Assembly: GCF_046105845.1 (NCBI RefSeq)
Contig: NZ_CP151004.1
Length of the DNA: 64,000 bases
Source of the DNA: Escherichia coli
GTDB lineage: Bacteria > Pseudomonadota > Gammaproteobacteria > Enterobacterales > Enterobacteriaceae
Reading direction: 5' to 3' (one strand)
The notes under the pieces are model-generated. The model saw only the letters and a program-made list of their open reading frames with translations. It was not told the origin of the DNA and ran no database searches. Every line of letters begins with the position of its first letter. Position 1 is the first letter of the stretch. Positions 1 through 21,064 of this stretch are shown here, piece after piece. The translations under genes were made by a program, and so were the position numbers.

Positions 1-293
1 AAACTACCAGTTTAAAAAGTCTGGCACAAAAAGCAGTTGATAGCGGAGTAAACGTAGCTCTGGTAACTATGAAAGCAGATTCGACGATCGGTAAATTAGC
101 TCAATCTGTGTTGGTACTACCAGGAAGTGTGAAAGACGATAACAATCGTGTTGCAGGCGCTTTCGCACAACCAATGGGATCGGCTTTTGAGCAGCTCTGC
201 TTTATTACTTATGATGCAATTGTTCTGGAGTTGATGTCTGAACTGGGTGAAAGCAGTGCCACAATGTTTACCCGACACGCTGATCTGGAATGA
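1..293 (+). CDS. 3' part of a gene running in from upstream of the window; C-terminal region resembles SIS-domain (phosphosugar isomerase/binding) proteins
   Basis: Frame of ORF 69..293 is open back to position 1 with no stop; stop at 291-293 followed by a terminator hairpin; product assigned by weak motif resemblance only. Confidence 0.3.
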   Translation, partial: TTSLKSLAQKAVDSGVNVALVTMKADSTIGKLAQSVLVLPGSVKDDNNRVAGAFAQPMGSAFEQLCFITYDAIVLELMSELGESSATMFTRHADLE

Positions 294-320
294 CCAAAGA
301 GTTGGTAATTAGAAAGTAAA

Positions 321-346
321 AAGCCTGCTTGAAAGCAGGCTTTTTT
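321..346. terminator. Rho-independent terminator hairpin (gcctgctt/aagcaggc plus T-run), A/T runs on both sides so possibly bidirectional
   Basis: Inverted repeat and T-run read directly in the sequence between the upstream CDS and the tRNA. Confidence 0.6.
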
Positions 347-351
347 GAATT

Positions 352-427
352 TGGCTCCTCTGACTGGACTCGAACCAGTGACATACGGATTAACAGTCCG
401 CCGTTCTACCGACTGAACTACAGAGGA
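352..427 (-). tRNA. asnV: tRNA-Asn (GUU)
   Basis: Exact reverse complement of the 76-nt E. coli tRNA-Asn sequence including CCA end; position next to nac. Confidence 0.93.
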
Positions 428-752
428 ATCGTGTGAACGGGGCGCATATTAATGGCAGTGCATGGTGATGTCAAAGGGTGAAATGCATTTTTTTGTTTGT
501 TTGCTGTCAATTTCAACAAAGTGGTGAGCTTTCAATCTTATTGGTAATGAACCATCGTGGTGCATACCCTCCTTTTATGGGGCAGGGGAACGCGACAGCT
601 GATAAAAAGAGCCAATGACGAACCTATCATAATCTCTTATTTGACAGTTGGTTAGCTTGTACATCAACGCCAAAATAAAACTGGCAAGCATCTTGCAATC
701 TGGTTGTAAGTAATGGCGGCACTTGGGCCGATTCTTAAAAACCGGAGGCAAC

Positions 753-1670
753 ATGAACTTCAGACGCCTGAAATACTTCGTAAAAATTGTAGATATTGGT
801 AGCCTGACCCAGGCTGCTGAAGTATTGCATATCGCACAACCAGCGCTCAGTCAGCAGGTTGCCACACTGGAAGGTGAGTTAAATCAACAACTTTTGATTC
901 GCACAAAACGGGGCGTTACGCCAACTGACGCCGGAAAAATTCTCTATACCCATGCGCGGGCCATTTTACGTCAGTGTGAGCAGGCCCAACTGGCGGTGCA
1001 TAACGTTGGTCAGGCATTATCGGGGCAAGTCTCGATTGGCTTTGCGCCAGGAACCGCTGCGTCATCCATCACCATGCCCTTATTACAGGCGGTTCGCGCT
1101 GAATTCCCGGAGGTCGTTATCTATCTTCATGAAAATAGCGGTGCAGTACTTAACGAAAAACTGATAAATCATCAACTCGATATGGCGGTGATTTATGAGC
1201 ATTCCCCTGTGGCTGGTGTATCCAGCCAGGCTTTGCTGAAAGAAGATCTTTTCCTGGTAGGAACTCAAGATTGCCCGGGGCAAAGCGTTGATGTTAATGC
1301 TATTGCGCAAATGAACCTCTTTCTCCCCAGTGATTACAGTGCTATTAGACTTCGTGTTGATGAGGCTTTTTCCCTACGGCGACTCACGGCAAAAGTCATT
1401 GGTGAAATTGAGTCTATTGCCACGCTTACCGCAGCGATTGCTAGCGGCATGGGCGTTGCAGTATTACCCGAATCGGCCGCGCGTTCGTTATGTGGCGCAG
1501 TAAATGGTTGGATGTCACGCATTACCACTCCTTCCATGAGTCTCTCTTTGTCATTAAATTTACCCGCCAGAGCGAACTTATCGCCACAGGCACAGGCAGT
1601 GAAAGAGTTGTTAATGTCAGTGATGAGTTCTCCAGTGATGGAAAAAAGGCAGTGGCAATTGGTGAGCTAA
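753..1670 (+). CDS. nac: LysR-family nitrogen assimilation control regulator Nac (305 aa)
   Basis: ORF 723..1670; ATG at 753 preceded by GGAGG; N-terminal [39 protein letters not shown] recognised as Nac. Confidence 0.9.
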   Translation: MNFRRLKYFVKIVDIGSLTQAAEVLHIAQPALSQQVATLEGELNQQLLIRTKRGVTPTDAGKILYTHARAILRQCEQAQLAVHNVGQALSGQVSIGFAPGTAASSITMPLLQAVRAEFPEVVIYLHENSGAVLNEKLINHQLDMAVIYEHSPVAGVSSQALLKEDLFLVGTQDCPGQSVDVNAIAQMNLFLPSDYSAIRLRVDEAFSLRRLTAKVIGEIESIATLTAAIASGMGVAVLPESAARSLCGAVNGWMSRITTPSMSLSLSLNLPARANLSPQAQAVKELLMSVMSSPVMEKRQWQLVS

Positions 1671-1771
1671 GCGTTATATCGGGATGGAATAAGATGCGGG
1701 TTTTTATTATTTGTTATGCCGGGCATTAGACTTTAACAATAACGGGAAATCTGAACTGCCCGGAGTTTACC

Positions 1772-2722
1772 GTGAATTTCCAACAAATAAAGATAATCCG
1801 CGAGGCTGCACGTCAGGATTACAACCTGACAGAGGTTGCGAATATGCTTTTTACCTCACAGTCCGGCGTCAGCCGTCATATTCGGGAACTGGAGGATGAA
1901 CTTGGCATCGAAATATTTGTTCGACGAGGTAAGCGACTGCTGGGCATGACTGAACCGGGCAAAGCATTACTGGTCATTGCAGAACGTATTCTGAATGAAG
2001 CCAGTAATGTTCGTCGGCTTGCAGACCTGTTTACCAACGATACGTCTGGCGTTCTCACTATTGCAACGACGCATACTCAGGCACGTTATAGCTTGCCAGA
2101 GGTCATTAAAGCTTTTCGCGAACTTTTCCCGGAGGTTCGGCTGGAGCTAATCCAGGGTACGCCACAGGAAATTGCGACGTTGTTGCAAAATGGCGAAGCT
2201 GATATTGGTATCGCCAGCGAGCGTTTGAGTAATGACCCGCAGCTCGTCGCCTTCCCGTGGTTTCGTTGGCACCATAGTTTGCTTGTTCCACTCGATCATC
2301 CCTTGACGCAAATTACACCGTTGACGCTGGAATCAATAGCGAAGTGGCCGTTAATTACTTACCGACAGGGGATTACGGGGCGCTCACGTATTGATGACGC
2401 ATTTGTCCGCAAAGGTTTGCTGGTAGATATTGTATTAAGTGCGCAGGATTCTGATGTCATTAAAACCTATGTTGCTCTTGGGTTGGGGATTGGATTAGTT
2501 GCCGAACAATCCAGCGGCGAACAAGAGGAAGAGAATTTAATCCGTCTTGATACGCGGCATCTTTTCGATGCCAATACTGTATGGTTGGGACTGAAGCGAG
2601 GGCAACTTCAACGTAACTATGTCTGGCGCTTTCTGGAACTTTGTAATGCAGGACTGTCAGTTGAGGATATCAAGCGCCAGGTGATGGAGAACAGTGAAGA
2701 GGAAATTGATTATCAGATATAG
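1772..2722 (+). CDS. cbl: LysR-family regulator Cbl (sulfonate-sulfur utilisation), GTG start, 316 aa
   Basis: ORF 1772..2722; protein MNFQQIKIIREAARQDYNLTEVANMLFTSQSGVSRHIRELE recognised as Cbl; follows nac as in E. coli. Confidence 0.9.
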   Translation: MNFQQIKIIREAARQDYNLTEVANMLFTSQSGVSRHIRELEDELGIEIFVRRGKRLLGMTEPGKALLVIAERILNEASNVRRLADLFTNDTSGVLTIATTHTQARYSLPEVIKAFRELFPEVRLELIQGTPQEIATLLQNGEADIGIASERLSNDPQLVAFPWFRWHHSLLVPLDHPLTQITPLTLESIAKWPLITYRQGITGRSRIDDAFVRKGLLVDIVLSAQDSDVIKTYVALGLGIGLVAEQSSGEQEEENLIRLDTRHLFDANTVWLGLKRGQLQRNYVWRFLELCNAGLSVEDIKRQVMENSEEEIDYQI

Positions 2723-2723
2723 C

Positions 2724-2752
2724 AAAAAGCCCGCTATAAAAGCGGGCTTTTC
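2724..2752. terminator. Rho-independent terminator after cbl (gcccgct/agcgggc stem plus T-run)
   Basis: Hairpin read directly after the cbl stop codon. Confidence 0.6.
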
Positions 2753-2759
2753 AGAAATT

Positions 2760-2835
2760 TGGCTCCTCTGACTGGACTCGAACCAGTGACATACGGATTA
2801 ACAGTCCGCCGTTCTACCGACTGAACTACAGAGGA
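2760..2835 (-). tRNA. asnU: tRNA-Asn (GUU)
   Basis: Exact reverse complement of the 76-nt tRNA-Asn; lies between cbl and yeeO. Confidence 0.93.
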
Positions 2836-2995
2836 ATCGCTGTTGAGGCACATCTTAACGGCGAAAAATCTTTTGTCAAACCCGATTTTTAAATTTCCCA
2901 ACTGTTTGCCGTTTCTATCAACAGTTTGTTGCATTTGCAGACAATTTGTTGGCGAAAATCTTTGCAGCTTTGCTGATTCTCCCTCATTATTTGAA

Positions 2996-4483
2996 ATGTG
3001 GTTTCACTTTCTGCAATTAAGGTCGGCTTTGAATATCTCCTCTGCTTTACGCCAGGTTGTTCACGGCACTCGCTGGCACGCTAAACGCAAGAGCTACAAA
3101 GTGTTGTTCTGGCGCGAGATAACCCCGCTTGCTGTTCCTATCTTCATGGAGAACGCCTGTGTCCTGTTGATGGGTGTTCTGAGCACTTTTCTGGTCAGCT
3201 GGCTGGGAAAAGATGCGATGGCCGGCGTGGGATTGGCCGACAGCTTCAATATGGTCATTATGGCTTTTTTTGCAGCTATCGATCTTGGTACCACTGTCGT
3301 TGTGGCATTTAGTCTCGGTAAGCGGGATCGACGACGAGCGAGGGTGGCGACGCGGCAGTCATTGGTGATCATGACGTTGTTTGCCGTACTGTTGGCAACG
3401 CTTATTCATCATTTTGGCGAACAAATTATTGATTTCGTCGCGGGTGATGCCACGACAGAAGTTAAAGCACTGGCGTTGACTTATCTGGAGCTGACGGTAC
3501 TCAGTTATCCAGCAGCTGCCATCACTTTGATTGGTAGTGGGGCACTTCGTGGTGCAGGGAATACGAAAATACCGCTACTGATTAACGGTAGCCTGAATAT
3601 TCTTAATATTATTATTAGCGGCATATTGATTTACGGCCTTTTCTCCTGGCCGGGACTGGGATTTGTCGGGGCTGGGTTGGGTTTAACCATTTCTCGTTAT
3701 ATTGGCGCAGTGGCAATTTTGTGGGTGCTGGCGATTGGTTTTAATCCTGCGCTAAGGATTTCGTTAAAGAGCTATTTTAAACCGCTGAATTTTAGCATTA
3801 TCTGGGAAGTCATGGGGATTGGTATTCCAGCAAGTGTCGAATCAGTATTATTTACCAGTGGTCGGTTATTAACCCAAATGTTCGTTGCCGGGATGGGGAC
3901 CAGTGTTATTGCCGGAAATTTTATCGCGTTTTCAATTGCGGCTCTTATCAACTTACCCGGAAGTGCGCTCGGCTCTGCTTCTACGATCATTACAGGCCGA
4001 AGGTTGGGAGTAGGGCAGATAGCGCAAGCAGAGATTCAGTTGCGGCATGTGTTCTGGCTGTCCACTCTTGGATTAACGGCCATCGCCTGGCTAACGGCTC
4101 CCTTTGCCGGGGTTATGGCATCGTTTTACACCCAGGATCCACAGGTTAAACATGTCGTTGTGATTCTGATTTGGCTAAATGCTTTATTTATGCCTATTTG
4201 GTCTGCCTCATGGGTGCTACCCGCTGGATTTAAGGGTGCTCGCGATGCACGTTACGCCATGTGGGTTTCTATGTTGAGCATGTGGGGTTGCCGGGTTGTA
4301 GTCGGTTATGTGCTGGGAATCATGCTTGGCTGGGGGGTGGTTGGTGTCTGGATGGGAATGTTTGCCGACTGGGCTGTGCGGGCCGTGCTGTTTTACTGGC
4401 GAATGGTTACTGGACGTTGGCTGTGGAAATATCCTCGATCTGAGCCGCAAAAGTGTGAAAAAAAGCCAGTTGTGTCGGAATAA
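2996..4483 (+). CDS. yeeO: MATE-family efflux transporter YeeO (495 aa)
   Basis: ORF 2843..4483 is a multi-pass hydrophobic protein recognised as YeeO; ATG at 2996 chosen because the longer ORF would abut the tRNA and 495 aa matches my recollection of the curated length. Confidence 0.8.
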   Translation: MWFHFLQLRSALNISSALRQVVHGTRWHAKRKSYKVLFWREITPLAVPIFMENACVLLMGVLSTFLVSWLGKDAMAGVGLADSFNMVIMAFFAAIDLGTTVVVAFSLGKRDRRRARVATRQSLVIMTLFAVLLATLIHHFGEQIIDFVAGDATTEVKALALTYLELTVLSYPAAAITLIGSGALRGAGNTKIPLLINGSLNILNIIISGILIYGLFSWPGLGFVGAGLGLTISRYIGAVAILWVLAIGFNPALRISLKSYFKPLNFSIIWEVMGIGIPASVESVLFTSGRLLTQMFVAGMGTSVIAGNFIAFSIAALINLPGSALGSASTIITGRRLGVGQIAQAEIQLRHVFWLSTLGLTAIAWLTAPFAGVMASFYTQDPQVKHVVVILIWLNALFMPIWSASWVLPAGFKGARDARYAMWVSMLSMWGCRVVVGYVLGIMLGWGVVGVWMGMFADWAVRAVLFYWRMVTGRWLWKYPRSEPQKCEKKPVVSE

Positions 4484-4583
4484 ACGACAAAGTGCAGATT
4501 ATTTCAGCAAACGATTTCAAATTTAAAAAACAGGCTTTGACATTGTGGATGGGCATCGCTAATATTCGCCTCGTTCTCACGAT

Positions 4584-4659
4584 TCCTCTGTAGTTCAGTC
4601 GGTAGAACGGCGGACTGTTAATCCGTATGTCACTGGTTCGAGTCCAGTCAGAGGAGCCA
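4584..4659 (+). tRNA. asnW: tRNA-Asn (GUU)
   Basis: Exact match to the 76-nt tRNA-Asn on the + strand; inverted relative to asnU. Confidence 0.93.
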
Positions 4660-4720
4660 AATTTTAGTTTTGAGACATCTCTATAAGTCTCAAAACAGTT
4701 AAAAAATAAAAATTATTTTT

Positions 4721-4756
4721 ACCCGGTTACTTGTAAAAAAGTTACCGGGTTTTTTG
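4721..4756 (+). terminator. Rho-independent terminator downstream of asnW and yeeO
   Basis: Imperfect inverted repeat acccggttac/gttaccgggt followed by a T-run. Confidence 0.55.
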
Positions 4757-5112
4757 ATTTCTGTGTTTCGTGCGCTTAATCGAGTCTCACGCTTCAGTGA
4801 GCAAATTGCCCCTCCCCAACAGACATCACGATTCGCAAGGTCAAAAACTCTGTTCCATGAAGTACCGTACAAAGATAAAGAGAAAAATGCCTTATGCGGG
4901 ATGTCGCTATCGCGTCTTTATCGGGAAACTATGCGTAATTGCCACTTTGCCTTCTGTAATCAGAAAAAGAAGAACTGGAATTTTAATAAATATTATTTCT
5001 CTGGGAATGGGTTTTTTTTATAATCAATATGACGAGTTGAACATTATATTTTTATAATGATTATATGAGATTAAAGAAATCTGCCATAAAGACAGATTTC
5101 TTTAAAATATAA

Positions 5113-5829
5113 TTAGAGATTTGCGACGTTATGATAAACTTTTTGTACATCGTCGTCATCTTCAAGGGCATCAACAAGCCCTTCAAAGATTTCTAAATCT
5201 TCTGGGGAAAGCTCAACTTCAGATTGAGCAATCATTTCTAATTCTGTTGTTGAGAACTCAGTGATTCCAGCTGCTTTTAGAGCCGCGATTCCTTTATGAA
5301 GGTCAGTAGGTTCGGTATAAATAACAATGTTACCTTCTTCTTCAGTCACATCACGAACATCAACTTCAGCTTCAAGTAAAATTTCAAAAATATGGTCAGG
5401 GTCTGTTCCTTTAAATACAATCACACCCGTATTGTCAAACATATAGCTGACAGAACCTGCCGCTCCGATATTGCCGCCTTTTTTATTGAAAATTGTGCGA
5501 ACGTTAGCAATCGTACGGTTAACATTGGAAGTCAAGGTTTCAGCGATAATCATTGAGCCATTAGGACCAAAGCCTTCATAACGGCCCTGCACGAACGTTT
5601 CATCTCCGCCGCCTTTGGCTTTATCAATTGCTTTATCAATAACATGCTTTGGAACTTGTGCCTGCTTTGCTCGTTCAATAACGAATTTTAAAGATGTGTT
5701 TAATTCTGGATCGGGTTCACCTTGTTTGGCAGCGGCATAGATTTCTACACCGAATTTTGCATAAATTTTAGACGTCGCACCGTCTTTAGCCGTTTTTTTA
5801 GCAACAATATTGGCCCATTTACGTCCCAC
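5113..5829 (-). CDS. yeeN: YebC/PmpR-family transcriptional regulator paralog YeeN (238 aa)
   Basis: ORF with N-terminus [27 protein letters not shown] typical of the YebC family; position between asnW and amn. Confidence 0.85.
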
Positions 5830-6171
5830 TGGAATGATCTCCTCGAAAATTTATTTACATTACTGGTAAATCGTTAACATGTGTTAGTTCGGCATATTAT
5901 ATCATAACAGGAAAAATCTCGTCTATTAGAAATAAAAATATTCTAAAGCCATAATATTATATTTAATCTCATAAAAACTAATGTTGTTGGCGGATTTTTT
6001 TATAATTCTTTTTTGAAAGCATACTTGCTTTTAATATGTGGAAATCATTAAGACGATAATAAAACTCGTATCCGCCCAAGGAAGCAAACAGCCCGCGTTT
6101 ATTGCGGGCTATTTGCCAGATGTCTTACTTAATCCTTCACATCTATTTTTGATAAGAAGGTTCAGAACTTA

Positions 6172-7626
6172 TTATCGGAACGGCGGCTCATTAAAGGTTC
6201 GTAATTTACGTGAATGCAGTCGGTCGCCTTCTGCGCGCAGCAAATCGATCGCCCGAATGCCAATTTGCAGGTGTTCGGAAATAGCGCCTTCATAAAAACG
6301 GTTAGCCTGACCGGGAAGTTTAATCTCACCATGCAACGGTTTATCTGAAACACACAGTAGTGTCCCGTATGGCACGCGGAAACGATATCCTTGCGCAGCG
6401 ATGGTTGCACTTTCCATATCAATTGCTACGGCCCGGCTTAAGTTAAAACGAAGTGCAGAAGCTGAGTAACGTAATTCCCAATTCCTGTCATCTGTGGTTA
6501 CCACAGTGCCAGTACGTAGCCGCTGTTTAACTTCCTCACCGGGCCTGCCGCTGACTAACTTGGTAGCGTCATAAAGCGCACGTTGCACTTCAGCAATGCT
6601 CGGAATAGGAATATCGGGCGGCAGTACCGCATCAAGAACGTGGTCATCGCGTAAATAAGCGTGTGCAAGTACATAATCTCCAATGGCCTGGCTTTCACGT
6701 AAGCCACCACAGTGACCAATCATCAACCAGACATCCGGGCGTAGCACCGCCAGATGATCGCAGATGGTTTTTGCATTTGACGGTCCCACGCCAATATTCA
6801 CCAGAGTAATACCCTGACCATCGACGGTAATTAAATGCCATGCTGGCATCTGGTGTTTTTTCCATGCAAGGTCGGAAATGGCTTCTTCTGGCGCTTCGGT
6901 TTCGGCGGTGATCCAGTTCCCGCCAGCACAAGAAAGGGCAATGTAGGGACTATCAGGGTCGAGGATCTGGCTGCATCCCCAACGAACGAATTCATCCACA
7001 TAACGTGTGTAGTTGGTAAACAAGACGAACGGCTGAAAATGTTCAACTGGCGTACCGGTATAATGGCGCAACCGCGCGAGGGAAAAATCGACGCGGCGCG
7101 CATCAAAATGCGATAGCGGGGAGAATTCCGTTGGATGATAAATGCCGTCTGCAGTTTCATCGCCAATTTGCGCCAGTTCTGTTGTCGGGAAGTAGCGAGT
7201 TAGCCCAGCGCTCATTGAGCGATCAAGTGTCAATTCAGAGCCATCGATGACATAAGGATAAGGGATTTCATGCTGCGAGGGTTGCATCGAGATATGCGCA
7301 CCATAATCCTGATACAGCAACGTAAGTTGTTCATTGAGATACGAACGAAAGAGAGTAGGGCGAGTAATCGTGGTGGTGTAGCTGCCTGCGTGGGTAAAAC
7401 GACCAAATGCGCGCGTTTTGGGGGGATTGGTTGTGCTACCGTCCCAGGTTACGGTCAGTGATGGATAGACAAAAAGACCTTGTTTGCGGGCGTTTTCATC
7501 AGGTAATTCGCCACTTGTAATATATTTGCCAATGGCGTTGCGTAAAGCGACTACAGATTGCTCATACAGCGCGTCGAGTTTATCCAGTGCCTGAGCTGGG
7601 GTCAGACCGGAGCCCTTATTATTCAT
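6172..7626 (-). CDS. amn: AMP nucleosidase (484 aa)
   Basis: ORF 6172..7731 recognised as Amn; start placed at the ATG giving MNNKGSGLTPAQALDKL with an AGGAG upstream; the longer ORF is an N-terminal artefact. Confidence 0.88.
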   Translation of the reverse strand: MNNKGSGLTPAQALDKLDALYEQSVVALRNAIGKYITSGELPDENARKQGLFVYPSLTVTWDGSTTNPPKTRAFGRFTHAGSYTTTITRPTLFRSYLNEQLTLLYQDYGAHISMQPSQHEIPYPYVIDGSELTLDRSMSAGLTRYFPTTELAQIGDETADGIYHPTEFSPLSHFDARRVDFSLARLRHYTGTPVEHFQPFVLFTNYTRYVDEFVRWGCSQILDPDSPYIALSCAGGNWITAETEAPEEAISDLAWKKHQMPAWHLITVDGQGITLVNIGVGPSNAKTICDHLAVLRPDVWLMIGHCGGLRESQAIGDYVLAHAYLRDDHVLDAVLPPDIPIPSIAEVQRALYDATKLVSGRPGEEVKQRLRTGTVVTTDDRNWELRYSASALRFNLSRAVAIDMESATIAAQGYRFRVPYGTLLCVSDKPLHGEIKLPGQANRFYEGAISEHLQIGIRAIDLLRAEGDRLHSRKLRTFNEPPFR

Positions 7627-7727
7627 GTGTGTCTCCTGTTCCATACAATTACCGCACATCCGATAGTATGTCACAGAAATGTGAAACAAAAGTGTAAGGC
7701 GAAGATCGGATGATCTTCGCCAGACTA

Positions 7728-9044
7728 TCAAGCGCGTTGATTATCTTTCATCAACAAAGCGGTCATTGCGGAAATCAGGCATCCAGCCAGCAAATAAATG
7801 GCGACGCTATGCCAGTTCCCGGCAAAGTAAGTGATGAGTGCAGCGGCAATAAAAGGTGTAAATCCACCGCCAACCACACTGGCAACCTGATAACCGACTC
7901 CAGCGCCACTATAGCGATAACTGGCACCAAACATTTCGGTAAACATCGGTTGTTGCACACACACCACCATGTCATGCGCAATGTTTGCCAGCATTATGGA
8001 GAAGAAAACTATCCAGAAAATAGATTGTGCTTCAAGCGCCATAAAGAAAGGAAATGCGCTCAACGTTCCGATTAACGCACCTGTGATATAAACCCTGCGG
8101 CGACCAAAACGATCGGCAAGCCAGGCAAAACAGGGAATTGTCAGGCAGCTTAATCCACCTACCAGCAAACCAATATTGAGGAAAAGTTCGCGCGGTAACC
8201 CCATATTCTGGGTTGAATAATTAAGTGCGAAGGCGGTAACGATGTACATCGTCAGCAACTCGCACAGTCGTAGCGCAATAATCTTCAGGAAAGCACCAGG
8301 ATGCCGTAATAGTGCTTCGATAACCGGAATGCGTTTTTTCGCGGCCGCTTGATTATGTTGCTGTTGTTCGAATTCCGCGGACTCCTCCATGCCATTGCGC
8401 ACCCACAATGCTCCCAGTACCAGTACGATGCTAAACAGGAAAGGAATGCGCCAGCCCCAGCTTAAAAACTGTTCGTCAGTCGTCATCATACTGATCAATG
8501 AAACCAGTCCGGTTGAAAGCAGTAAACCTACACCGTAGCCAACTTGTACACCGCTACTATAAAAGGCTTTTTTATTTTTCGGCGCACTTTCAACGGAAAG
8601 TAACGCCGCGCCTCCCCATTCGCCGCCGACGGCAAATCCCTGTATGGCACGCAGCGTCACCAGTAAAATGGGGGCCCACCACCCAATGGTCGAGAAGGAA
8701 GGAAGAATACCAATCAAGGCTGTCGCGATGCCCATCATCCAGACGGTCAGCATTAACATGCGTTTACGTCCCAGTCGGTCGCCAAAGTGACCGAAAATGA
8801 CACCGCCGAGCGGACGGAACAGGAATCCGACACCAAAGGTGGCAAATGCGGCGAGCGTTCCCATAGCCGGGCTTACTTGCGGGAAAAACTCGCGATTAAA
8901 CACCAGTGCGGCGGTAATGCCATAGAGTAAAAAATCATACCAGTCGACGACGGCACCGGCAAAACTGCCTAACGCAGCTCGTCGGGCGCGACTTAACGAA
9001 AGCGTCCCTTCATCGGGACGAGTGGAGATGAGCGTGGAGTCCAT
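7728..9044 (-). CDS. shiA: MFS shikimate/H+ symporter ShiA (438 aa)
   Basis: 438-aa multi-pass membrane ORF with MFS sugar-transporter motifs; position between amn and yeeL. Confidence 0.88.
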   Translation of the reverse strand: MDSTLISTRPDEGTLSLSRARRAALGSFAGAVVDWYDFLLYGITAALVFNREFFPQVSPAMGTLAAFATFGVGFLFRPLGGVIFGHFGDRLGRKRMLMLTVWMMGIATALIGILPSFSTIGWWAPILLVTLRAIQGFAVGGEWGGAALLSVESAPKNKKAFYSSGVQVGYGVGLLLSTGLVSLISMMTTDEQFLSWGWRIPFLFSIVLVLGALWVRNGMEESAEFEQQQHNQAAAKKRIPVIEALLRHPGAFLKIIALRLCELLTMYIVTAFALNYSTQNMGLPRELFLNIGLLVGGLSCLTIPCFAWLADRFGRRRVYITGALIGTLSAFPFFMALEAQSIFWIVFFSIMLANIAHDMVVCVQQPMFTEMFGASYRYSGAGVGYQVASVVGGGFTPFIAAALITYFAGNWHSVAIYLLAGCLISAMTALLMKDNQRA

Positions 9045-9358
9045 AATGATCCTGTTTGTACTGTCTTTTTATAATTAGTATGGAAAAGGTAACTCACATT
9101 GCCGTCGATCTATAAACGAACCTTATGAGACTACCTCGACAGAGCGCATCTGCAAATGATTTTATGGCTGATGAGCAACAACACGAAAAATTCGCTGGAA
9201 GATGAAAGCGCAGGAGTTGCTGGTGTTGTTTAAGGATTAAGCAGAGGCCCCACAGGTTCGAGATATGAAACATAAAAGTCCGCATATGTACAAAATAGCA
9301 CCCTGATGAGTCTGATAGACTGCATTGCATTATAACCAGTAGGGAGGCGAGGTTAGGT

Positions 9359-10411
9359 ATGTTTTTAGCATCATTGTTGAGACGTATTGCATTTAGTTAC
9401 TACGATTATAAAGCTAATAATTTCAATATTGGAAAAACAGACTTTGTTGTCATCCATATTCCCGATCAAATTGGCGATGCTATGGCCATCTTTCCAGTTA
9501 TTCGGGCGATTGAAATGCATAAAATAAAGCATCTTTTAATTGTTACTTCGACTATTAATTTAGAAGTCTTTAATGCGCTCAAACTTGAACAGACTAAATT
9601 AACATTAGTCACAATGACTATGCAGGATCACGCAACATTAAAAGAAATAAAAGATTTAGCGAAGAACATAACACAGCAATACGGTACGCCGGATCTTTGT
9701 ATAGAGGCGATGCGTAAAAAGAACCTGAAAACGATGTTATTTATCAGTCAGTTGAAAGCAAAAACGAATTTTCAGGTTGTCGGTTTAACCATGAAGTGCT
9801 ATTCCCCTTTGTGTAAGAACGCGTCCCGGATGGATCAGAATCTCAGGGCTCCCGTACCCATGACATGGGCGTTTATGATGCGTGAAGCGGGTTTTCCTGC
9901 AGTCAGGCCAATATATGAATTGCCATTAAGCGAGGATGTACTCGATGAGGTGCGCGAGGAAATGCGATCGTTAGGATCTTACATTGCGCTTAATTTAGAA
10001 GGTAGCTCGCAGGAGCGTACATTTTCATTATCGATTGCAGAAAATCTAATAGCAAAAATTCAAAGTGAAACAGATATACCAATAGTGATCGTTCATGGAC
10101 CCAAAGGGGAAGATAAAGCCAGGGAACTAGTGAATAGTTATAATAATGTCTACCGTTTATCCTTGTCACCCTCGATTAAACGTTCAGCAGCAATCATAAA
10201 AGATGCTTATATCGCAATAACACCTGACACCTCAATATTACATATGGCAAGTGCCTATAATACCCCCGTTGTTGCAATTTATGCTGATTACAAAACGCGA
10301 TGGCCCGCAATGGCCGATGTCTCGGAGTCAGTCGTCGTTGGGCAAAAAATTGACAATATAAGTCTGGATGAATTCGCAAAGGCATTAAAAAGTGTTTTGG
10401 CGAGAATTTGA
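9359..10411 (+). CDS. yeeL: Glycosyltransferase family 9 (ADP-heptose:LPS heptosyltransferase-like) protein, intact 350 aa; I recall this locus as a pseudogene in K-12
   Basis: Uninterrupted 350-aa ORF with ATG at 9359 and AGGGAGG upstream; C-terminal region has GT9-like character; visibly AT-rich. Confidence 0.65.
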   Translation: MFLASLLRRIAFSYYDYKANNFNIGKTDFVVIHIPDQIGDAMAIFPVIRAIEMHKIKHLLIVTSTINLEVFNALKLEQTKLTLVTMTMQDHATLKEIKDLAKNITQQYGTPDLCIEAMRKKNLKTMLFISQLKAKTNFQVVGLTMKCYSPLCKNASRMDQNLRAPVPMTWAFMMREAGFPAVRPIYELPLSEDVLDEVREEMRSLGSYIALNLEGSSQERTFSLSIAENLIAKIQSETDIPIVIVHGPKGEDKARELVNSYNNVYRLSLSPSIKRSAAIIKDAYIAITPDTSILHMASAYNTPVVAIYADYKTRWPAMADVSESVVVGQKIDNISLDEFAKALKSVLARI

Positions 10412-10982
10412 GGCAGTACTTATGCATAGTAATGCCGATCTGTTATGAACGGTAGTGTCATCAATGCTCTGAGGCTGGTCAATCATCACAGAAAACCAGC
10501 CTTTGGATCAAAGCAGTACTCACCGAAAATGCTCATAGTCACACCGAACGCGATTCAGGTGGAACTAAAACATTCACCATCATAAATAAGACAGCCTGAA
10601 CTTAAATCCCCGTTAACAGGCATACATTATAATGAGTGGTACTGATGTAATTTGTAATATTGAAATATGAACTGATATTGTTTGTTCGTCCTGACATATC
10701 TTCCTCCTTGATGTAATTAGCTAAACATTAACGTAATTTGACTGCATAGCAACAATGATAGCTATCAATAATAGCTCATGTACTTCGTTTCCCGCTGGCG
10801 TGGAACAGGTGGTTATACCATGTGTGAAAGCGTTTATTAAAAAAGAAAGGAGGCTCGACTATCTTCAGACTAACAGGGATGTATGGGAAAATGCAGGTAT
10901 ATTAATGGAGCGTTTGACAGCAAACGAATGTAAAAGTAGAGCGCCCCGAATGGAGCACTCTGTAAGAAAATATAGCGAAAAA

Positions 10983-19595
<8,613 letters not shown>

Positions 19596-19907
19596 GCTTA
19601 CCTTCCCTGAACGAGCTAACATAAATGCGCCCTTTCTAGCACAGCGAAAAAATGTAAATCCTGATAGCAATATGATTGAAAATTAATAAATTTTCGTTAA
19701 GCAGTTTTGGGTGTGGGTTGCAAGAGGGGAGACTACTGAATTACTCAAGTTTTGTAATCGAGGGGAAAATGGTGATGGCGTTCATAGCAAAACGCCCTCA
19801 ACCATAAAGGTCGAGGGCGCTTAAGATGTCAAAAACCCGCTATCCGTTAAAAAGCAATGCTCAACTAAGGTCAGTGACATTGCGCTAAAAAGCGAATTTT
19901 TAGAATT

Positions 19908-19983
19908 TGGCTCCTCTGACTGGACTCGAACCAGTGACATACGGATTAACAGTCCGCCGTTCTACCGACTGAACTACAGAGGA
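19908..19983 (-). tRNA. asnT: tRNA-Asn (GUU)
   Basis: Exact reverse complement of the 76-nt tRNA-Asn; about 24 nt of its 5' flank are identical to the asnV 5' flank. Confidence 0.93.
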
Positions 19984-20083
19984 ATCGTGTGAACGGGGCG
20001 CATATTACTTAGCGGTACCTTGTCTGTCAACACTAAATTTCATAAGTCATTTCAATTGGTTAATTAATCCGCAAAGTTGTTAA

Positions 20084-20974: not shown

Positions 20975-21064
20975 GGAGAGATGCCGGAGCGGCTGAACGG
21001 ACCGGTCTCGAAAACCGGAGTAGGGGCAACTCTACCGGGGGTTCAAATCCCCCTCTCTCCGCCA
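20975..21064 (+). tRNA. serU: tRNA-Ser (CGA)
   Basis: 90-nt sequence ggagagatgccggagcggctgaacgg...ctctctccgcca with long variable arm, CGA anticodon and CCA end; divergent from mtfA. Confidence 0.9.

Follow-up and report, generated by a model that had tools for sequence, protein, structure and literature searches.

Four identical tRNA-Asn genes around nac-cbl and yeeO in Escherichia coli: natural rearrangements between short perfect repeats at an island hotspot

Four tRNA-Asn genes, asnV, asnU, asnW and asnT, lie within the first 20 kb of the 64,000-nt stretch of Escherichia coli DNA analysed here (RefSeq assembly GCF_046105845.1, contig NZ_CP151004.1; hereafter the window). In ARAGORN predictions, asnV occupies positions 352–427 (minus strand), asnU 2760–2835 (minus), asnW 4584–4659 (plus) and asnT 19908–19983 (minus, with an unoccupied 3′ side). 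All four fold into a cloverleaf with the anticodon GTT at positions 34–36 and score 72.6 bits against the Rfam tRNA family (RF00005), for which the gathering score is 29. An Rfam scan of 1–22 kb found tRNAs as the only structured RNAs, and ARAGORN placed a tRNA-Ser(CGA) gene at 20975–21064 in addition to the four Asn genes. The gene order, hxlB′-asnV-nac-cbl-asnU-yeeO-asnW-yeeN-amn-shiA-GT9-yeeJ-asnT-mtfA-serU, agrees with that of annotated E. coli genomes. The upstream region of nac forms the 5′ flank of asnV, asnU is located between the 3′ end of cbl and the 5′ region of yeeO, as in K-12-type DNA, and asnW is located between the 3′ end of yeeO and yeeN. The K-12-type strain 6A has the same order and orientations, with tRNA genes at 2058027–2058102, 2059851–2059926 and 2062260–2062335, which are the coordinates of asnW, asnU and asnV in MG1655. 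All four genes are thus present here in the common K-12-like arrangement, and none of them carries an integrase island. Among complete RefSeq E. coli genomes, the best match to window positions 1–22000 showed 98.5% identity over 21.7 kb, and the flanking blocks differed by 2–3% from every strain compared; the window therefore comes from a sparsely sampled lineage.

The 76 nt of the gene are invariant among the four copies when these are aligned with 50-nt flanks. The same holds beyond the window, as 75 tRNA-Asn copies, taken from the window and from 25 loci of about 20 strains including a K-12-type strain, comprised one distinct sequence. The runs of perfect identity between pairs measure 84 nt (asnV/asnU and asnU/asnT), 85 nt (asnU/asnW), 86 nt (asnV/asnW and asnW/asnT) and 105 nt (asnV/asnT), and each of them exceeds the minimal homology of ∼25–30 nt for recombination in E. 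coli; Shen and Huang reportedly arrived at a value of roughly that size in 1986. The 105-nt run is composed of 24 nt of 5′ flank, the 76-nt gene and 5 further nt, and it lies within a pair of 111-nt blocks (341–451 around asnV and 19897–20007 around asnT) that are direct repeats with 99% identity. In a repeat search, asnU and asnW formed an inverted repeat of 85 nt at 100% identity, with its left arm at 2755–2839 and its right arm at 4580–4664, each consisting of the tRNA gene and 4–5 nt per side, 1,740 nt apart; asnV, asnU and asnT were direct repeats. An earlier note, made from the window sequence, had described four identical 76-nt copies, an inverted repeat of asnU (minus) and asnW (plus) around yeeO, direct repeats of asnV and asnU around nac-cbl, and ∼24 nt of shared 5′ flank in asnV and asnT. 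All of this was confirmed: the coordinates and strands match those of ARAGORN, the shared flank falls within the 105-nt run, and no differences between the copies had been overlooked. The names given there to the four genes are likewise supported by the flanking genes, the orientations and the identical sequence in the K-12-type strain.

Recombinant configurations were counted in 5,426 complete E. coli genomes with synthetic junction queries, in which 460 nt of the 5′ flank of one gene were joined through the tRNA to 460 nt of the 3′ flank of another; a genome was counted if one colinear match covered at least 80% of the query. The junction of the yeeO inversion (asnU × asnW) that joins the yeeO 3′ end through the tRNA to the cbl 3′ end was present in 32 genomes, and its reciprocal, yeeO 5′/tRNA/yeeN, in 34. 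The asnV × asnW inversion, marked by nac-upstream/tRNA/yeeN, was found in 265 genomes, and its reciprocal with an empty slot (yeeO 3′ end/tRNA/ldtA) in one. The yeeO 5′/tRNA/ldtA junction, which is that of a nac-cbl deletion (asnV × asnU) or a related event, occurred in 35 genomes. No genome contained the junction of a nac-cbl tandem duplication (nac-upstream/tRNA/cbl end), of an asnU × asnT deletion (mtfA/tRNA/cbl end) or of an asnW × asnT inversion (yeeO end/tRNA/yeeJ side), the last count applying to genomes in which asnT is unoccupied; these three junctions double as negative controls for the method. The earlier note had proposed the asn repeats as substrates for inversion of yeeO and for deletion or duplication of nac-cbl. 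The inversion and, in at least two strains, the deletion are found in nature, whereas the duplication is not among these genomes. The comparison across E. coli genomes that the note had called for revealed structural variation at asnU/asnW and also gave the counts of island occupancy reported below.

The yeeO inversion is present in ∼0.6% of the genomes, and both of its reciprocal junctions occur in the same genomes; from the counts of 32 and 34, about 31 genomes carry a clean reciprocal inversion. Annotation of LD27-1, TC24, Santai, PSJ-36, NT1F31 and CRECJHTL34 showed yeeO flipped with its neighbours otherwise unchanged. When a native K-12-type strain was aligned with two inverted strains, three blocks were obtained (1–4717, 4633–6540 reversed at 100% identity, and 6456–12995), and the overlaps between the blocks are exactly the 85-nt repeats, so the breakpoints lie inside the repeat. 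Flipping the segment in silico in the K-12-type strain produced a single colinear alignment of 12,995 nt with the two inverted strains, at 99.87–99.95% identity. Further junction matches belong to more complicated loci: KL53, which is inverted between asnV and asnW as well, has for that reason only one of the two yeeO-inversion junctions, and in LR-58-1, and probably in two similar records, an ICEEc1-like integrative and conjugative element (ICE) of the high-pathogenicity island (HPI) type sits on the other junction. In LR-58-1 (NZ_AP027553.1), where yeeO is inverted, this element comprises a complete yersiniabactin cluster and a VirB-type type IV secretion system and is located at the tRNA-Asn gene adjoining the yeeO 3′ end.

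The inversion is found on distinct genetic backgrounds. Relative to the native K-12-type strain, differences were counted over 3,044 nt of yeeN-amn, 1,748 nt of yeeO and 2,333 nt of nac-cbl. CRECJHTL34 differed at 0, 0 and 0 positions in these segments (0 of 7,125 nt) and PSJ-36 at 2, 0 and 1, while the counts were 19, 6 and 46 for TC24, 60, 38 and 61 for LD27-1, and about 72, 20 and 53 for Santai and NT1F31, which are one single-nucleotide polymorphism apart. The inverted strains thus represent at least four to five haplotype backgrounds that are 1–3% apart, with LR-58-1 on yet another; to account for this, no fewer than four or five separate events, or reversions, are required. Santai and NT1F31, which are near-identical and were assembled independently, share the inversion, which shows its heritability. 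No island or integrase was present at any of the four asn sites in yeeO-inverted LD27-1 and Santai; therefore, a resident asn-specific integrase is not required for the yeeO inversion. The putative promoters of asnU and asnW and the upstream region of yeeO all lie within the flipped segment, so the inversion exchanges only the tRNA genes' 3′ trailers and the strand of yeeO. It is probably near-neutral, which fits a rare and scattered polymorphism. A literature search found no paper describing a yeeO-only inversion, and the papers on the asnV/asnW inversion do not describe one; the polymorphism appears to be unreported.

The commonest rearrangement, which is absent from the earlier note, is the inversion of a 4.1-kb block (nac-cbl-asnU-yeeO) between asnV and asnW (4.9% of genomes). 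In Nissle 1917 the order is clbS-integrase-tRNA-yeeO-tRNA-cbl-nac-tRNA-yeeN, and the same is true of HH45, so in both strains the block is flipped relative to the window; in both, the pks island is located on the ldtA side. Because of this inversion, the position described as 'pks at asnW' is physically the ldtA-side slot beside the outer left tRNA gene. The asnV/asnW inversion has been described in pks-positive B2 strains by Auvray et al. (PMC8209727) and Wami et al. (PMC8461471), and Russell et al. (2019) reported an asnW/asnV inversion that arose in cultures of UTI89, was validated by polymerase chain reaction (PCR), was independent of the Fim recombinases and was judged 'common, and possibly dynamic' (PMC6458436). 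The single genome with ldtA directly in the slot, SE15 (NC_013654.1), was considered as a clean asnV/asnW inversion and rejected, as it carries an inverted partial yeeO duplicate. Its locus reads yeeN, tRNA, a 922-nt inverted partial copy of yeeO, nac, cbl, tRNA, full-length yeeO, tRNA and ldtA; the asnV-type tRNA gene is missing, and the arrangement is unique among the 5,426 genomes.

Clean deletions of nac-cbl were found in AH20K059 and MEI3O-23, which have the order yeeN-asnW-yeeO-tRNA-ldtA with three tRNA-Asn genes left and belong to different backgrounds. The reading of all 35 genomes with the yeeO 5′/tRNA/ldtA junction as deletions was rejected. Most of the other 33 appear to be one lineage with a complex rearrangement, an estimate of ∼30 genomes that is based on one annotated genome (2016C-3878) and eight listed matches of the same identity class (97.1%). 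The locus of 2016C-3878 (NZ_CP029747.1) consists of ldtA, tRNA, yeeO, tRNA, two head-to-head integrase islands, tRNA, nac, cbl, a 17-nt attachment (att) repeat and a type VI secretion/RHS island. Two other candidates were also discarded. SL112, a laboratory strain, has lost part of cbl-nac by a deletion in which the tRNA genes play no role, and a 5,969-bp 'plasmid' with two tRNA-Asn genes, considered as an excised circle, is a linear unplaced chromosomal contig; this mislabelled record (NZ_CP196293.1, 'plasmid unnamed2' of strain AH21A060) reads yeeO′-asnU-cbl-nac-asnV-ldtA-cobT-cobS.

Occupancy of the tRNA 3′ ends was assessed by counting native junctions in the same set of genomes. The native yeeO-asnW-yeeN junction was present in 4,980 of the 5,426 (92%) and the native mtfA-asnT-yeeJ junction in 2,667 (49%), so about half of the sequenced strains have something else at asnT; PK5086, with an integrase island at this gene, is an example. 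In the literature, the HPI of E. coli is described as fixed at asnT. Among the open reading frames (ORFs) of the window, no P4-type integrase gene lies next to a tRNA 3′ end, where the neighbours are the hxlB islet (past a terminator), cbl, yeeN and yeeJ. For a 22-nt segment from the tRNA gene, 0.00 chance occurrences were expected in shuffled sequences, and it was found only in the four genes; a search of the whole 64 kb for the 22-nt tRNA 3′ end with up to three mismatches detected no orphan att repeat, as all matches lay inside the four intact genes. As a positive control, distal repeats of the tRNA 3′ end were seen in TC24 and 2016C-3878. The native junctions and the lack of an integrase ORF and of an orphan att repeat in the window agree with the statement of the earlier note that asnT and asnW are unoccupied. 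The 3′ side of asnV, which is the ldtA-side slot, is not empty here: it holds the end of a sugar phosphotransferase system (PTS)/hxlB islet. In the annotation of LR-29-1, the 3′ end of hxlB (1–297, plus strand) belongs to the last gene of this ∼9.3-kb sugar-PTS/pentose-phosphate islet between ldtA and asnV, which extends to the left of the window and contains two PTS systems, rpe, a short-chain dehydrogenase/reductase and regulators of the DeoR and SorC types; no integrase and no att repeat were found in it. A junction like that of the window (hxlB-asnV-nac) occurs in 142 of the 5,426 genomes, and genomes without the islet align only from window position 298–301, past the asnV terminator.

Judging from consensus motifs, each of the asn genes has its own putative promoter, and a clear terminator hairpin is predicted for at least asnV. 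The consensus scan and the four-way alignment gave promoter-like sites at 446–474 for asnV (TTGACA-17-TAATAT, minus strand, with the hexamers invariant in the alignment), at 2852–2879 for asnU (TTGACA-16-TAAGAT, minus) and at 4537–4565 for asnW (TTGACA-17-TAATAT, plus), the latter two within the invertible yeeO segment; the site of asnT (20002–20030, TTGACA-17-TAATAT, minus), which is outside the scanned part, comes from the alignment. The hairpin downstream of asnV was located by the scan at 318–345 (minus), and the hxlB islet starts past it. Between the direct repeats asnV and asnU lie nac (753–1670, plus) and cbl (1772–2722, plus), both assigned from their ORFs and the annotation of the best-matching genome. 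The MATE efflux transporter gene yeeO (2996–4483, plus; start by analogy with an annotated homologue) is the only gene within the asnU/asnW pair. On the 3′ side, the native neighbour of asnW is yeeN (5113–5829, minus; ORF and annotation), at a distance of 452 nt; this spacer was considered as a possible remnant and rejected, since K-12-type strains carry it unchanged. For asnT, the native 3′ neighbour is a yeeJ-like gene for an inverse autotransporter/immunoglobulin (Ig)-like adhesin, with its longest ORF at 10983–19670 (minus) and its true start probably near 19595 by analogy. This ORF contains four tandem 609-nt repeats (62–94% identity) at 14521–16647 and encodes 2,895 amino acids, versus 7,077 nt (about 2,358 amino acids) in K-12-type strains; because of this difference in length, the number of Ig-like repeats is taken to vary between strains. 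The GT9 glycosyltransferase gene (yeeL, 9359–10411, plus) is an intact ORF of 350 amino acids here; annotations of K-12-type strains list it as a pseudogene that contains an internal stop. Cumulative GC skew rises along the plus strand (window 1–64000). If the skew of this one window marks the leading strand, asnW might be co-directional with replication and asnV, asnU and asnT head-on, an orientation that would not be usual in tRNA genes with high expression.

We consider it likely, with a probability of about 0.8, that the four loci are functional monocistronic tRNA-Asn(GUU) genes, each with a predicted sigma-70 promoter of its own and together the only source of asparagine tRNA in the cell, and that as perfect repeats they serve both as low-frequency crossover sites and as attachment sites for islands. 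The invariance of the 76-nt gene makes the copies perfect repeats of 84–105 nt. Crossing over between asnU and asnW would flip the 1.75-kb yeeO cassette, between asnV and asnW it would flip the 4.1-kb nac-cbl-asnU-yeeO block, and between asnV and asnU it would remove nac-cbl, and the 3′ ends of the same genes are also the attachment sites of islands with P4-type integrases, such as HPI, pks and ICEEc1-like elements. The enzymatic route would presumably be general (RecA-type) homologous recombination between short repeats, and the 'homologous recombination' of the earlier note was an assumption of the same kind. Some observations weigh against this account. The asnU/asnT and asnW/asnT repeats, although equal in length to the others, gave no rearrangements, and the asnV/asnW inversion with ldtA directly in the slot is known only from SE15, a complex case. 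From the latter it follows that the asnV/asnW inversion, unlike the yeeO inversion, is tightly associated with island carriage, a linkage that could reflect a few clonal events or the involvement of an integrase rather than free homologous recombination. Since these two recombinant asnT junctions are missing and no island-free asnV/asnW inversion was seen, the outcome cannot be foretold from the length of the repeats alone, and distance, selection or mechanism must matter.

This pattern leaves room for two other mechanisms, both unlikely in our view. In one of them, RecA-independent template switching during replication between closely spaced short inverted repeats, with a steep fall-off with distance, yields the yeeO inversion. 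At equal repeat lengths, the asnU/asnW pair (1.7 kb) underlies the ∼31 island-free inversions; island-free cases are all but lacking for the 4.1-kb pair, and there are none for the 15-kb pair, as this mechanism would predict. Here, however, it is indistinguishable from RecA-dependent recombination, the frequency of which also drops with distance, and the same picture could result if flips of nac, cbl and asnU were selected against. We regard it as improbable. A slightly poorer candidate is the action of island-encoded P4-type tyrosine integrases on attB in the tRNA 3′ ends, for example through an element present at two inverted asn sites or through recombination of att with a secondary attB. 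The scarcity of empty slots among asnV/asnW-inverted genomes (1 of 265) speaks for it, as do the pks or other integrase islands in the slot of Nissle, HH45 and KL53 and the combination of the yeeO inversion with an HPI-ICE at the adjoining tRNA in LR-58-1. However, recombination of attB with attB is not a normal activity of integrases, genomes with neither island nor integrase at any of the four asn sites also show the yeeO inversion, as do K-12-type backgrounds, no att scars are present in the window, and the junctions of the inverted strains are clean.

Two further explanations carry very little weight. Repeated tRNA genes may mislead assemblers, and the unplaced chromosomal piece filed as a 5,969-bp plasmid in RefSeq indicates that assemblies can break at this locus. 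However, the 85-nt repeats are shorter than ordinary reads, the two reciprocal junctions were found together in the same genomes, near-identical strains assembled independently share the same state, and the asnV/asnW inversion was validated by PCR (PMC6458436), which makes an origin of the rearranged configurations in assembly artefacts very improbable. The presence of a single gene between perfect inverted repeats, with both orientations found in nature, might instead suggest a programmed invertible switch that regulates yeeO. Against this, no gene for a recombinase lies within the cassette or beside it, in the window or in the inverted strains, where the repeats bracket yeeO alone and are adjoined by cbl and yeeN; the upstream region of yeeO and the two tRNA promoters would move with the segment, so no connection between promoter and gene changes; only ∼0.6% of genomes are flipped; and the repeats are simply whole tRNA genes. 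Such a switch is hardly credible.

Within the preferred account of crossing over between tRNA repeats, it is tentatively suggested that the 1.75-kb asnU-yeeO-asnW cassette flips recurrently, perhaps continuously, through its 85-nt repeats, possibly by a RecA-independent, distance-dependent route, so that a minority orientation might exist in ordinary cultures, including those of K-12. If so, short-homology recombination in the chromosome could be followed with this cassette as a natural reporter. In general, the feature is real and ordinary, and most of it was known before: the gene family is a textbook one, and its locus is a much-studied hotspot for islands, where repeat-mediated inversion has already been reported. 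The new elements are minor and consist of the frequencies in the 5,426 genomes, a yeeO-only inversion that recurs and two natural nac-cbl deletions. Their practical use is chiefly in annotation and interpretation. The census provides rough natural frequencies for recombination between 85-nt repeats, about 0.6% for a 1.7-kb inversion, with deletion rare. As the 5′ flank decides which gene is called asnV and which asnW, the two names swap places upon inversion of the block, and the statement that pks is at asnW does not define a physical slot. Islands, ICEs and small repeat-mediated rearrangements come together at this hotspot, and several configurations are to be expected there in comparative and assembly pipelines. 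These results leave the understanding of tRNA genes and of recombination unchanged.

When the locus is compared with known systems, its closest relative is the asnT/asnW/asnU/asnV region of K-12 (about 2.04–2.06 Mb), which shares the 76-nt sequence, order, orientations, flanking genes and putative promoters in the 5′ flanks. The window differs from K-12-type strains in flanks that are about 2–3% divergent, an intact GT9 gene (yeeL), a longer yeeJ and the hxlB sugar islet adjoining asnV. The tRNA-Asn islands HPI (asnT), pks (asnW, asnV or asnU) and ICEEc1 use the same attachment genes as those of the window, but none of these islands is present in it. The published asnV/asnW inversion involves the same locus and repeat family; the window is non-inverted, and the yeeO flip uses the other pair, asnU/asnW. 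The yeeO cassette has in common with fimS, Hin and the shufflons two orientations bracketed by inverted repeats. However, it has no dedicated recombinase, each of its repeats is an entire gene, flipping does not reconnect a promoter, and the inverted state is rare and fixed in lineages, not phase-variable. In enterobacteria, dispersed identical copies of rrn operons, insertion sequence (IS) elements and tuf genes give rise to inversions when inverted and to deletions when direct. Compared with these, the asn repeats are far shorter (84–105 nt versus kilobases), and the rearranged segments are small (1.7–4.1 kb) and not of replichore scale.

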